From: a virus
Lineage: Duplodnaviria > Heunggongvirae > Uroviricota > Caudoviricetes
Reading direction: 5' to 3' (one strand)
Length of the DNA stretch: 35,029 nucleotides
IMG/VR virus record: IMGVR_UViG_2737471845_000031
Span: 1-35,029 of that record
The notes beneath the pieces were generated by a model. It was not told the origin of the DNA. It did no database searches and saw only the letters and a list, made by a program, of their open reading frames with translations. Position 1 is the stretch's first letter. Every line of letters starts with the position of its first letter. Position numbers and translations under genes: made by a program. Shown one piece after another: positions 22,234 to 31,388 of the stretch.

Positions 22234-22252
22234 GTGTGTCTCCTTGTCTGGT

Positions 22253-22291
22253 GGAGACAGCATCACAAATACAGGGCGCGAAGGATTTTAA
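22253..22291 (-). promoter_or_regulatory. candidate activator-dependent late promoter and leader upstream of lysis genes
   Basis: Minus-strand TTAAAATC, 23 nt, CTGTCTCC, then ACCAGACAAGGAGACACAC-ATG; CTGTCTCC can pair with GGAGACA that includes the SD. Poor -35. Confidence 0.45.
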
Positions 22292-22363
22292 AGCGCGTTA
22301 AGAGAGCCGGGGATACGGGGTGTGCAGGATAAACGATGAATTATTCACAGAGGAGAATACGAT

Positions 22364-23107
22364 ATGACGCACACACTGAATCCGGTCATCACTGTCACTG
22401 TGTCCGGTCCTGTGGGCAGCGGTAAAAGTTACGTACTGGCGCGGATAGAAGAGATGGTGAAACAGGAACTCGGAAACAGCGTCATTGTCGATGCTGCTGA
22501 CGTGGAGAATGAGCGCCGTATGAGTGGCGATGATCTGACGACCTGGCAGAAGCCACGGGCTGGCACAGTGATCAGGCTGGAGGAATACACGGGACAGGGC
22601 CTGTTGTCATACGGCGAGGAGCGTATCTGTCGGACGAATGAGCTGCTGGATGTTATATGCCCCACGGGCCGGCAACCCTGGATACTGCCCGATGCACTGC
22701 ATGCCACCATTGCGGCACTGATGACAGTTTACGATCAGGAGCTGCTCATGAAGGAGTTACGTAAACTCGCTGGTCAGCCAACAGAATGTTTTTCGGCCCC
22801 GAAGTACGGGAAGCAGGAACACATCCCGGTGAACACAATCCCCGTTAACCAGCCTCCCCGGTTCTTCGACGAATACATTCTGACACCGGAAAATAAAGCT
22901 GAGCATGAAGAGATCAAAGCGGCGTTGTTCCGGGAAATCAGGAAGATTGCTGAAATGCAGCTGGAGGGCGGGCTGGACAGAGTGATGGCGAGAGGAGAAT
23001 GGGAATCGCTGTTTGAAAAAGTTTCCCCGGAATTGCTTCCCCTCGCACTGGCTATCGGGATTATGCAGACAACGGATAAACCTCACTTACGTTCATTAAA
23101 CACGTAA
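22364..23107 (+). CDS. hypothetical P-loop (Walker A) protein
   Basis: 247-aa ORF, ATG 22364 with AGGAGA RBS; N-terminal VSGPVGSGKSYVL Walker A-like motif; no further recognisable domain. Divergent from the late operon. Confidence 0.5.
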   Translation: MTHTLNPVITVTVSGPVGSGKSYVLARIEEMVKQELGNSVIVDAADVENERRMSGDDLTTWQKPRAGTVIRLEEYTGQGLLSYGEERICRTNELLDVICPTGRQPWILPDALHATIAALMTVYDQELLMKELRKLAGQPTECFSAPKYGKQEHIPVNTIPVNQPPRFFDEYILTPENKAEHEEIKAALFREIRKIAEMQLEGGLDRVMARGEWESLFEKVSPELLPLALAIGIMQTTDKPHLRSLNT

Positions 23108-23487
23108 CGCATAATCCGGGATACGCATTCAGCGATGACTGCATTTTCACCGGTTTTTACTGCATCCAGAAGCGACTCTTTAAATGGCACGGGCCGGGGC
23201 TGCAGAAAGGTCGGCATGGCATTGAGCAGACAGAGCGTTTTTTCCGTGAGGACGACATCAGCCGCTCCCACAGCCAGCAACTGAGAGTAACGAATATAGC
23301 TGTTATCCCGAAGCCATATCAGCGTATCAATAAAATACCGGCACTTTTTCTGGTCGTGATCAACCTGGTCCGGGATATCGAAAAAACCAGAATAAATCAA
23401 AACCTGAGGTACCGGATGCGTGTTCAGTAATCGGCAGAATATTTTGCCGGTGAGTACATAAAAATCATCATTTAAGGAGTGCATCAT
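23083..23487 (-). CDS. hypothetical protein, paralog B of the 23951-24331 gene
   Basis: 134-aa ORF filling the gap between flanking plus-strand ORFs. Alignable blocks with paralog A (IFCRLLNTHP ~ IFGRLYESFP, FIDTLIWLRDNSY ~ FLDTVDWLKNSGY, VVLTEKTLCLLNA ~ AVLTAKGLEVLNA). Confidence 0.45.
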   Translation of the reverse strand: MMHSLNDDFYVLTGKIFCRLLNTHPVPQVLIYSGFFDIPDQVDHDQKKCRYFIDTLIWLRDNSYIRYSQLLAVGAADVVLTEKTLCLLNAMPTFLQPRPVPFKESLLDAVKTGENAVIAECVSRIMRYVFNERK

Positions 23488-23701
23488 GAATCCCCGATTA
23501 ACGTTAACAGAACATCAGCGCCGTGCTGAAGCAGTGAACAATGTTCTGGAAGATATTATCCGGTTACATCGCGGAGAACTGAGTATCTGTCGTGCCACTG
23601 TTCATTTTCAGGAAATACAAAAGCAGTTTGATACTTCTGTTTTTGCAGAAGGGCTCACTTACGCCCTGGACCAGATAAGGTCAGAAAATCACCCCGGATA
23701 A
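23486..23701 (+). CDS. hypothetical small protein
   Basis: 71-aa ORF with AAGGAG RBS 6 nt upstream; its start overlaps the divergent paralog B start (CATG). It may instead be non-coding leader. Confidence 0.35.
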   Translation: MNPRLTLTEHQRRAEAVNNVLEDIIRLHRGELSICRATVHFQEIQKQFDTSVFAEGLTYALDQIRSENHPG

Positions 23702-23757
23702 TCCCTAAACCGCATTAACAGAAATCCCACTATCCCTGCCGCATCATGAAAGAACGA

Positions 23758-23785
23758 CCAGCCCGGCACCCGAAAGCCGGGCTGG
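23758..23785 (-). terminator. GC-rich hairpin (candidate minus-strand terminator)
   Basis: Perfect 10-bp inverted repeat CCAGCCCGGC / GCCGGGCTGG with 8-nt loop; minus-strand downstream sequence is TCGTTCTTTCATG. Confidence 0.4.
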
Positions 23786-23890
23786 CCATCGTCCCACAGG
23801 AATGCACTGTGAGCCGACCGAGGTTCAGTCAGTCTCGTGAGACCAGACTAGCCTGCCATATTTTTAATAATTGTAAAATGTTTACAGATT

Positions 23891-23992
23891 ATGAAAACGC
23901 AGACATTACCCATCGTTCCATGGATTGGTGGCAAACGCTGCCTTGCGATATTACATAAGACCACGAGACATATATTGCAGACCTATTCCTAG
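23891..23992 (+). pseudogene. diverged 5' remnant of a second Dam methyltransferase gene
   Basis: Encodes MKTQTLPIVPWIGGKRCLAILHK..., matching the Dam N-terminus MKEQSLPIVPWIGGKRRLAKHILPQ; stops after 33 codons and runs into the 3' end of the paralog A gene. Preceded by a ~90-nt leader ~70% identical to the leader of the intact dam. Confidence 0.5.
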
Positions 23993-24331
23993 AGTCTGGC
24001 TAACCAGTGATCGCAACGCTTCTTTCCCTTCAATTTTTATAGAGTCAGATATTCTGGCCCCCAACGGTTTTTCCAGACTTCCAGGCGTAGCGTTTAATAC
24101 CTCAAGACCTTTAGCCGTTAGCACTGCGTTGTGGATCCCCCCAGAACTACGCGCCCCGATTAAATAGCCACTGTTTTTAAGCCAGTCTACGGTATCAAGA
24201 AAAAAAGTAAGTTCATTCTGTCTAACGATATCAACTGCCTTTATATCAATTTTGACGGGGAAAGATTCGTAGAGTCTCCCAAATATCTCACCAACTATTT
24301 CATTAAACCGCTCAATATTTTTTGGGGCCAT
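23951..24331 (-). CDS. hypothetical protein, paralog A (possible winged-helix protein)
   Basis: Likely ~126 aa from ATG 24331 (GGGAG upstream); the ORF-track start at 24415 would cover a hairpin. Contains an LT-x-KG-like segment (AVLTAKGLEVL). Divergent from dam. Confidence 0.5.
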   Translation of the reverse strand: MAPKNIERFNEIVGEIFGRLYESFPVKIDIKAVDIVRQNELTFFLDTVDWLKNSGYLIGARSSGGIHNAVLTAKGLEVLNATPGSLEKPLGARISDSIKIEGKEALRSLVSQTLGIGLQYMSRGLM

Positions 24332-24378
24332 GGTATTAGTAACTCCCTTTAATTGTCGCCCATGAAATATGCAAATAA

Positions 24379-24411
24379 CATGAAAAGAGCGACTCACCTT
24401 GTGCAGCGAAC
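24379..24411 (-). terminator. hairpin (candidate minus-strand terminator or insulator) between dam leader and paralog A
   Basis: 13-bp inverted repeat GACTCACCTTGTG / CACAAGGCGAGTC (one mismatch) with 7-nt loop; minus-strand downstream sequence GCTCTTTTCATGTTATTTGC. Confidence 0.4.
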
Positions 24412-24525
24412 ACAAGGCGAGTCATCAACTTACAGGTATGAGCTGTGAGTCAACCGAGGCTCTTCCGTTCTCGAGAACAAGGGAAGCCTATCGCATTTTC
24501 ATCTAATGAAAAAGGCTTACAGATA

Positions 24526-25290
24526 ATGAAAGAACAATCTTTACCCATCGTCCCCTGGATTGGGGGAAAACGTCGTCTGGCCAAACACATTCTGCCTCAG
24601 TTCCCACTCCATACCTGCTATGTGGAGCCATTCTGCGGCGCAGCAGCACTTTATTTTCTCAAGACTCCCAGCAAGATCGAAGTCATTAACGATATCAACG
24701 GTGAACTGGTAAATCTGTATCGGGTAGTAAAGCATCATCTGGAAGAATTTGTCCGCCAATTCAAATGGGCGCTGGTTAGCCGGCAGATCTACAAATGGCT
24801 GCAGATCACCCCGGAAGAAACACTGACGGATATCCAGCGTGCGGCACGGTTCTACTACCTCCAGAAGCAGGCGTTTGGGGGCAAGGTGGCAGAGCACAGC
24901 TTCGGCACCTCCACCACCTCCCCGCCACGCTTCAACCTGCTACGGATTGAAGAAGAACTGTCAGCGGCACACCTGCGGCTTTCCAGAACGGTGATAGAAC
25001 ACATGGACTGGCACCAGTGCATTAAGCGTTATGACCGTCCGCACACGCTGTTCTACTGTGATCCGCCCTATCTGGGGACGGAAGGCTATGGTGTGGATTT
25101 TCCTGAAGAGAACTACACACTACTCGCAGAACTGGCACGGTGCATCAGAGGAAAGATGATTATCTCGGTGAATGACATTCCGCAGATGCGTCGGGTGTTC
25201 ACTGAACTGAACATACAGACGGTGAATATCAACTACAGTCTGGCGGGGAAACCCACGCCACGCCGTGAACTGGTAATCTGCAACTTCTGA
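24526..25290 (+). CDS. dam: DNA N6-adenine methyltransferase (Dam family)
   Basis: 254 aa from ATG 24526; N-terminus LPIVPWIGGKRRL, FCGAAAL SAM-binding-type motif and catalytic DPPY, as in Dam-family N6-adenine methyltransferases. No adjacent restriction endonuclease gene. Confidence 0.85.
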   Translation: MKEQSLPIVPWIGGKRRLAKHILPQFPLHTCYVEPFCGAAALYFLKTPSKIEVINDINGELVNLYRVVKHHLEEFVRQFKWALVSRQIYKWLQITPEETLTDIQRAARFYYLQKQAFGGKVAEHSFGTSTTSPPRFNLLRIEEELSAAHLRLSRTVIEHMDWHQCIKRYDRPHTLFYCDPPYLGTEGYGVDFPEENYTLLAELARCIRGKMIISVNDIPQMRRVFTELNIQTVNINYSLAGKPTPRRELVICNF

Positions 25291-25319
25291 ACAAAACCGG
25301 AAAGCACAATGCTTTCCGG
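25291..25319 (-). terminator. intrinsic terminator between convergent dam and repressor genes
   Basis: Perfect 10-bp stem CCGGAAAGCA / TGCTTTCCGG with 3-nt loop, followed on the minus strand by TTTTGT; sits right after the dam stop. Confidence 0.55.
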
Positions 25320-25405
25320 TAAACCAAACAACTTCCACTATGTCACTGGCGATGTTTTCTGAAAGCATCCAGATCAACCACGCGCCCTTTGTGTCCAGGT
25401 CAAAA

Positions 25406-31096: not shown

Positions 31097-31193
31097 ACAC
31101 ACCACGTTAATTATTTAATAAAAACATTTTCTTTTTTATTCCGGCGTCAGCGCCGTGGGCTTCTGCACGCCGGAAACAGAGGAGAATTAAATT

Positions 31194-31388
31194 ATGATAT
31201 TTAAATGTATTCAGTGCGAGAGGGATATAACAGCCCTGCGTTTTCACAGCGCCATCGCCGTGATGTCCGGTAAATACCACGTACCTGCAGTACGCGTCAC
31301 CCTGGTCTGTCCGTACTGCAGTCAGCATTTTTCGGCAGATGTGCCCGTTATGGAATTCTCCCGCCCTGACAGGGAGGAAGCGCAATGA
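31194..31388 (+). CDS. small zinc-ribbon protein
   Basis: 64-aa ORF with GAGGAG RBS and two Cys pairs (CIQC ... CPYC). Confidence 0.4.
   Translation: MIFKCIQCERDITALRFHSAIAVMSGKYHVPAVRVTLVCPYCSQHFSADVPVMEFSRPDREEAQ

Follow-up and report, generated by a model that had tools for sequence, protein, structure and literature searches.

A structured leader preceding phage dam and com genes, and its duplication in a BcepMu-like prophage of Escherichia coli

We describe a leader of ~150 nucleotides (nt) that stands directly ahead of the adenine methyltransferase gene dam in IMG/VR virus record IMGVR_UViG_2737471845_000031, a stretch of 35,029 nt (hereafter the window, to which all coordinates refer) that is a BcepMu-like transposable prophage of Escherichia coli. 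The leader is a structured RNA element associated with the dam and com genes of phages, widespread and apparently undescribed so far, and the window carries it twice, as two diverged copies of one module. The account that we judge the more probable, taken jointly for both observations, is that the leader would act in cis as a translational gate of the first gene downstream and that its upstream copy would be a relic of an integration event. The structure and its linkage to the start codon come from comparative analysis, and the gating and its direction are what they most likely signify. Phage DNA methyltransferases shield phage DNA from restriction but can harm the host, and the timing of their expression matters for this reason. 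If the leader is indeed a translational gate, it would provide a compact and portable control module for toxic genes and a second layer of control alongside the zinc-finger protein Com.

The repeated module and the covarying structure of the leader

The repeat is real. The initial annotation had put the identity of the two stretches upstream of dam and of a truncated dam start at ~70%, and blastn of 23796-23937 against 24432-24572 gives 71.8% over 142 nt (E = 5e-15), a result on which blastn, MAFFT and the repeat search agree. The homology is longer than first noted, extending in the MAFFT alignment from a hairpin (23747 in the first copy, 24382 in the second) to dam codon 19 (23946 and 24581), and the module as a whole consists of a GC hairpin, the leader and the first dam codons, with copies at 23747-23946 and 24382-24581 that are ~72% identical. 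The hairpins ahead of the two leaders had been taken as unrelated in sequence; their stems do differ, but they fall in matching columns of the alignment and the changes between them are compensatory, and because of this shared position and compensation we count them as part of the repeat, where they form one of the covarying helices of the element. R1, a covariance model built from relatives, scores the upstream copy A (23747-23895, + strand) at 108 bits and copy B (24382-24530, + strand), the full element before the intact dam, at 119.3 bits (E 2e-25), with no further matches in the window. The truncated dam reading frame of 33 codons also exists as annotated (23891-23992, + strand): its similarity to dam stops after codon 19 at 23946, and the remaining 14 codons are read antisense to the 3′ end of X2, a gene on the opposite strand that is discussed below.

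In copy B, described here on the + strand, the 5′ strand of helix P1 (AAGAGC, 24385-24390) pairs with GCTCTT at 24459-24464 and closes a three-way junction that holds two hairpins, H1 and Hmid. H1 (24391-24423, arms 24391-24403 and 24411-24423; inverted repeat I5) stacks directly on P1, and is followed by Hmid (CTTACAG ... CTGTGAG, 24429-24449). Next comes H2 (24458-24488), the 5′ base of which overlaps the 3′ strand of P1 and the sequence of which differs in every lineage, and then a conserved AAGCCTA (24484-24490) that is complementary to the AGGCTT of the ribosome-binding region, a pairing that we call helix P5. A small AU-rich hairpin, H3 (24496-24512), appears in the minimum free energy (MFE) fold and is optional across lineages, others carrying different hairpins in its place. 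Then follow the ribosome-binding segment T (GGCTTACAG, 24514-24522), a spacer and the dam ATG at 24526 (24514-24528 in all), segment T being complementary both to 24443-24451 and to 24484-24489. The junction contains near-invariant bases, GC|G at the step from P1 to H1 and CCAAGG before the 3′ strand of P1. The apex of H1 (columns 22-33 of alignment A3; 24401-24413 in copy B) is a nearly invariant UG ... CA, in which the outermost two loop bases are either C..A or U..G, combinations of the same wobble geometry, and it has the look of a recognition feature.

These helices covary. P1 varies between GC (34), AU (8) and CG (6) at A3 columns 6:93 and between AU (30) and GC (19) at 7:92, Hmid shows AU (36) and GC (10) at 57:74 and AU (30), UA (11) and GC (6) at 59:72, and 11 of the 13 pairs of H1 have changed on both sides. 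Across the genome alignment (n=50), 81.6% of cells are paired, against 30-40% when the partners are slid, a level that none of 500 shuffles reaches, and 25 of 28 pairs have changed on both sides. An independent viral set (n=93) behaves in the same way, with 85.9% of cells paired against 28-44% when slid and again 0/500 shuffles; its Hmid pair 62:75, for example, is UA in 49 and AU in 42. RNAalifold recovers P1, H1 and Hmid unaided. A candidate extension of the H2 stem, pairing AGGCU with AGCCU, was rejected, as it has no changes on both sides and clashes with the covarying P1.

Distribution of the leader and its association with com

A scan for Dam that took one genome per species yielded 80 loci from gamma-, beta- and delta-proteobacteria, the upstream regions of which share one common architecture. 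In 70 of these R1 detects the element at full length and in the orientation of dam, as it does in both window copies, while among the other loci two elements are cut by contig ends and Pantoea stewartii has the 3′ part only. The P. stewartii leader (strain ATCC 8199, locus L049, 2410-2505) begins at AGCCTGCC, which leaves the local anti-start helix, and its junction domain is replaced by unrelated sequence; it is a natural deletion variant. In prophages of beta-, gamma- and delta-proteobacteria and in several named phages the leader accompanies dam, and its base pairs covary. The phages in which R1 finds it are PhiKM, KP12, phiE125, KS9, VP882, phiHAP-1, UMP151 and TJ1. Among these the dam-preceding element occurs in unrelated phage types, behind the lysis genes in phiE125 and KS9 and behind tail gene D in VP882 and phiHAP-1, and it is present likewise in Pseudomonas phage UMP151 and Curvibacter phage TJ1. 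By way of one prophage family the element is carried by about a tenth of complete E. coli genomes, in addition to the well-studied phages phiE125, KS9, VP882 and phiHAP-1.

In about a dozen lineages a small zinc-finger open reading frame (ORF) lies between the element and dam, and this is Com (PF10122, E 2e-18 and 3e-15). A scan of viral contigs by motif only gave 120 loci, in 96 of which the element is followed by dam, in 5 by com and dam, and in 10 by com and other genes; the rest are 5 chance matches rejected by the covariance model and 4 loci with too little downstream DNA. The other cargo linked to com comprises a colicin M-like protein (PF14859, E 5e-18), a B-lectin protein, a beta-helix protein, a DUF642 protein and a fusion of a P-loop ATPase with a GNAT acetyltransferase, and the IMG/VR contigs with the element and com before cargo other than dam are L149, L150, L155, L169, L171, L219 and L235. 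The initial annotation had seen in the leader a conserved non-coding element controlling the methyltransferase. Its conservation and its tie to dam hold up, but it is not specific to methyltransferases, since it also precedes com and other cargo, and the pair of leader and com may be a general control cassette for toxic prophage cargo. The window itself has no com next to dam; the only candidate, an unrelated CxxC...CxxC protein at 31191-31385 without a Com Pfam match, was set aside. That ORF (+ strand) encodes 64 amino acids (aa) of zinc-ribbon-like CxxC ... CPYC pattern and lies in the early operon, between gam and downstream genes.

Phage Mu gave no match to the covariance model. No Rfam family (Rfam 15) reaches its gathering threshold in the window, relaxing the search to E values up to 10 for 23650-24650 and for ten diverse loci returned chance-level matches only, and the element was not described in any of the literature that we searched. 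Four candidate RNAs without names, located ahead of N6-adenine methyltransferase genes and not inspected here, are listed in a 2023 catalogue (PMC10690425).

Pairing with the start region and a proposed translational gate

The linkage between leader and start codon begins with its position. At 52 of 81 loci an ORF on the same strand ends 0-20 nt before the element, leaving no room for a promoter, and the element is therefore predicted to be transcribed with the downstream gene as part of a + strand polycistronic RNA. Within this RNA the 3′ arm of Hmid plus TC (24443-24451) is complementary to 24514-24522, just 5′ of the start codon, and the two sides covary: pairing in the resulting long-range helix amounts to 77%, and both sides have changed at 6 of the 9 pairs, as in the combinations CUGUGAGCC/GGCUCACAG, CUGCAAGUC/GGCUUGCAG and CACGUGUCC/GGACACG. 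Duplex energies calculated free of register are better for cognate than for non-cognate partners in 61 of 72 leaders (-10.6 vs -7.2 kcal/mol) and, in a second set, in 56 of 60 (-9.7 vs -6.3 kcal/mol). P5, the pairing of AAGCCUA with the AGGCUU of the start region, is 83% paired and varies between AU (27) and GC (9) at 124:184 and between GC (32) and UA (6) at 126:182.

We propose that the ribosome-binding site of the first downstream gene, dam here and com elsewhere, would be held in a helix by either of two anti-start segments, the 3′ arm of Hmid (CUGUGAGYC) and the AAGCCUA after H2, each complementary to the stretch from the Shine-Dalgarno sequence to the start codon. The junction domain would be the controlling part, and only its remodelling by a trigger would release the ribosome-binding site, an arrangement by which read-through transcripts would not express a potentially harmful late gene.

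Several observations weigh against this proposal. When the long-range helix and P5 are tested in fixed columns of the viral alignment, they do no better than shuffles; we attribute this to a start region that is not structurally aligned there and to the dominance of one Burkholderia lineage with a shifted register, and for this reason the register-free comparison of cognate and non-cognate duplexes was used in place of these tests. The anti-start segments are rivals for one set of bases, and covariation supports none of the states in which the start would be free, the extension of H2 included. Nearest-neighbour folding of the full leader closes the start no further than does 45 nt of local context (6.95 vs 6.81 kcal/mol). 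Regulation by the leader is itself read from sequence. Finally, A.C on the + strand, hence G.U on the minus strand, predominates among the mismatches of P1, H1 and outer Hmid, with 69 A.C against 26 G.U after clustering and 29 against 0 for P1 in the viral set, an excess that is the reverse of the usual pattern for an RNA of the + strand.

This excess is the main reason to consider the opposite strand, and indeed a small RNA gene on the minus strand was our first reading, based on promoter-like and terminator-like sites and on folding in enterics only. Such an RNA, small, cis-encoded and antisense like SymR at symE, would start near the dam start codon and run leftward through the mirror images of H2, Hmid and H1, and it would pair with the mRNA leader to block or modulate translation of dam or com; it could coexist with a sense leader. 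Beyond the mismatch types, 65 of 72 leaders have the more stable Hmid duplex on the minus strand and the minus-strand MFE fold recovers the whole junction more often, but z-scores against composition-matched shuffles are similar on both strands and the advantage of the Hmid extension is largely compositional (4.6 of 7 for non-cognate against 5.6 for cognate partners), the junction strands being A/C-rich. The promoter-like site on the minus strand of copy A (23897..23870, TTTTCA-16-TACAAT) is on inspection conserved neither in copy B nor in other lineages, and the terminator-like site at H1 of copy B (24424..24390 plus CTCTTTTCAT, minus strand) is followed by a tail that is not U-rich outside enterics. 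In H2 the wobble pairs point the other way, with 46 G.U against 4 A.C on the + strand, and the long-range helix and P5 also have more G.U than A.C on that strand. With wider sampling we downgraded the minus-strand gene because of the link to the start codon, the + strand wobble of H2, long-range helix and P5, and the upstream same-strand ORFs whose stop codons the element abuts. We retain the antisense RNA, alone or together with a sense leader, as an alternative because of the A.C excess, and consider it possible though unlikely.

The resemblance to SymR (RF01809), a cis-antisense RNA over the 5′ untranslated region (UTR) of a toxic gene, deserves a closer look. In both cases a GC hairpin with the apex GUG-N6-CAC lies beside the start region of a gene that needs silencing, and the hairpin of the E. 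coli symE 5′ UTR and SymR shares the H1 apex (GUG-CGCCAA-CAC). The junction matches the family weakly on the minus strand at two loci, with 29.8 and 28.4 bits where the gathering score is 61 and both stem-loops are expected to align; only the 3′ hairpin aligns well, so that the match, at about half the gathering score, rests on one hairpin apex, and a conserved antisense promoter is missing. The reciprocal search of the symE/symR locus with R1 gave 8 bits on one hairpin.

Returning to the translational gate, the trigger could act on the junction domain directly. P1, H1 and Hmid would then be a sensor, as a riboswitch or a protein-binding operator, in which a small molecule or protein decides whether the anti-start segments are free, a more specific version of the gate that we find improbable in its own right. 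A covarying three-way junction with near-invariant bases followed by anti-start segments has the layout of a sensor with its expression platform, as in riboswitches, where binding of a ligand by the junction is here hypothetical; the conserved H1 apex with its alternating loop-closing position fits a recognition site, and the movement of the module between unrelated phage types argues for self-contained control. It matches no Rfam riboswitch, however, and the sequence names no ligand or protein, the downstream genes being as heterogeneous as dam, com and bacteriocin-like cargo. Feedback by Dam on its own synthesis and sensing of S-adenosylmethionine, both considered, are unlikely because the element also heads com with cargo other than methyltransferases.

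We hold with little confidence two further elaborations. Either the element would be a bidirectional unit, in which a + strand leader closes the dam or com start, the minus strand yields a cis-antisense RNA with a mirror three-way junction, and their pairing decides on opening, or its junction would be the sensor of a riboregulator of a new class, by which many temperate phages gate toxic late cargo. In the former case the opposite wobble biases of different helices would be the footprint of selection on both transcripts; in the latter the gated cargo would be DNA modification enzymes and colicin M-like and lectin-like bacteriocins.

The initial annotation had also drawn attention to a short ORF of the form M-x-C-E in each leader. 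Both copies do contain it, but it is not conserved, an ATG at that place being found in 21 of 72 related leaders. That the leader acts through this ORF (M-x-C-E-x-T-E...), whether by encoding a leader peptide or by coupling to dam as an upstream ORF, is hardly credible despite the ATG-initiated frame at the same place in both window copies. Its ATG lies inside the Hmid loop, its length and sequence vary, the second codon changes non-synonymously (H/R/S/Y/N/L) among close relatives, the AGG 1-2 nt before the ATG is too close to serve as a Shine-Dalgarno site, and the conserved bases form covarying helices instead.

Among polycistronic and toxin mRNAs, long-distance anti-Shine-Dalgarno pairing is the basis of hok fold-back inhibition and of coat-replicase coupling in the RNA phage MS2. 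The proposed gate is like these in that the start site would be closed by a segment ~60-100 nt upstream for which an alternative hairpin competes, and unlike them in that the sequences and contexts are unrelated and that here two competing anti-start segments are combined with a conserved junction domain. The closest functional parallel is com-mom of phage Mu, where the start site of a late, host-harmful DNA-modification gene lies in mRNA secondary structure that is opened by the zinc-finger protein Com (PMC6483171, PMC3299994). As in Mu, a late and potentially harmful DNA-modification gene here would have its start site in an mRNA structure, as judged by comparative sequence analysis, and a Com homolog lies between leader and dam in about a dozen lineages. 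In Mu, however, the structure that inhibits mom translation is the target of Com and lies between com and the modification gene, overlapping its start, whereas the present leader lies upstream of com or dam and, at ~150 nt with a three-way junction, has no counterpart in Mu. Modules of com with a non-specific adenine methyltransferase are known from the Mu-like prophages FluMu (hin1523) and Pnme1 (nma1821) (Drozdz et al. 2012, PMC3299994), and tight control of those methyltransferases has been proposed since uninduced cells show no activity (PMC3299994). The loci described here are like these modules in that a methyltransferase replaces mom behind com in transposable prophages, but that account deals with the methyltransferases and with putative Com sites at the 5′ end of their gene, and describes no structured element ahead of the operon (PMC3299994).

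Origin of the duplication and the prophage setting

The two-copy arrangement is rare. Of 5426 complete E. coli genomes 556 match the region, only 6 of them with the full coverage that implies two copies, and these six are all 98-100% identical; the ~550 single-copy E. coli genomes and PhiKM, likewise with one copy, are without ~635 base pairs (bp) of it. Two single-copy relatives (L021 and L005) are 97% identical to 23740-23946 and 96% to 24616-25290 in blastn, and between these blocks have 34 nt where the window has 669 nt. The foreign segment of 669 bp that replaces the 34 nt (23947-24615) holds X2, leader B and dam codons 1-30. Its left junction, CCTTGC|GATATT, lies 5 nt beyond the stop codon of X2, and its right end is a mosaic boundary within dam near 24616, so that the intact dam (24526-25290, + strand) has foreign codons 1-30 and a remainder of resident type. 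Copy A, 97% identical to L021 and L005, is the leader of resident type and would now be a relic; its ribosome-binding segment reads TGT where nearly all relatives have GGC.

The simplest history that these sequences suggest is a single integration anchored by homology at one end. A foreign fragment with X2, its own leader and dam codons 1-30 would have entered a PhiKM-like prophage of BcepMu type, by homologous recombination inside dam at the right end and by illegitimate joining at resident dam codon 19 at the left, and the resident leader with its dam stub of 19 codons would remain upstream as a decaying relic. From the junctions of the foreign segment, therefore, we interpret copy A and the stub as products of recombination, and the duplication appears to be an ordinary scar with no sign of regulatory purpose. 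It counts against this history that no close donor of the foreign segment was found among the E. coli genomes and all fetched loci, the best match to leader B being 82%, in Symbiopectobacterium.

Alternatively, the tandem leaders or the stub might regulate dam or X2, through titration of a regulator or antisense transcription across X2. The junction domain of copy A is intact, as its 108 bits attest, and the copy lies upstream of and convergent with X2, so that transcripts through it would be antisense to X2. We nevertheless consider a function of the duplication very unlikely, given that the arrangement is confined to 6 near-identical genomes of 556, that copy A lacks the conserved GGC, and that the junctions fit one integration anchored by homology at one end. 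As an integration relic the duplication illustrates how accessory genes may enter a hotspot, one end being anchored by homology in a conserved gene and a diverged regulatory copy being left behind.

X2 (23951-24331, minus strand, 126 aa) is the cargo of the insertion; it is a PGAP coding sequence in strain M-17, belongs to phrog_2266 (PHROG E 1e-35) and is 57% identical at the aa level to genes of Photorhabdus prophages, in which the X2 homolog follows dam in convergent orientation. X1 (23083-23487, minus strand) is its resident paralog (blastp 28% identity, E 4e-12), likewise of phrog_2266. Neither has a match in Pfam or PADLOC, and their shared pattern (G-Y-[IL] ... LT.KGL..L) resembles, by our own reading, a winged-helix domain. 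The start of X1 (23487, minus strand) and that of orf71 (23486, plus strand) overlap divergently within a CATCATG at 23485-23488, which could mean that one of them has been miscalled or that the two genes are controlled from one compact shared region.

The assignment of the window follows from its sequence and gene content. Positions 23400-25400 are 100% identical in E. coli M-17 and three other complete genomes, and megablast gives ~92% DNA identity to Escherichia phage PhiKM, which is classified in Bcepmuvirus; the flank 23300-23946 is 95% identical to PhiKM. Mor, GemA and Gam domains are present and a transposase gene lies downstream, so that close DNA identity to a classified Bcepmuvirus member is combined with early genes of the Mu type. 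Lysis and structural genes run leftward on the minus strand, orf247, orf71 and dam lie on the + strand, and farther right come a repressor (minus strand), a Ner-like gene, transposase, Gam, GemA and Mor. The dam product is an N6-adenine methyltransferase of the D12 class, matching PF02086 with 97.8 bits (E 1.1e-27; cut-off 22) and containing FYCDPPY.

Some observations on the neighbourhood and on the records compared may be added. At 22251-22305 a conserved box, GGTGGAGACAGCATCACAAAT ... GGATTTTAAAGCGCGTTAAGAG, adjoins the holin start and has on the minus strand a good -10 (TAAAAT) and a poor -35, the pattern expected of a Mor/C-dependent late promoter. In loci of Mixta, Brenneria and Photorhabdus this box immediately precedes the leader, and a partial copy (TAAACCGCATTAACAG) stands at 23706-23721, 5′ of leader A. 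Because this partial copy precedes leader A, it suggests that orf247, X1 and orf71 may also have been inserted at this place. The labels of OM835952.1 and OR820920.1 look doubtful. The clone of Klebsiella phage KP12 is filed under Vequintavirinae, yet the gene order of its contig is of BcepMu type, and the window's Dam has a 66% identical counterpart in a record titled 'Bacillus phage vB_BpuM-ZY1'. A strong hairpin at 25296-25320 separates dam from the convergent repressor gene, and only on the minus strand does a T-run follow it (ACCGGAAAGCATTGTGCTTTCCGGT TTTGTT). Transcription of the repressor probably terminates there, which would prevent leftward read-through into dam and the lysis genes.

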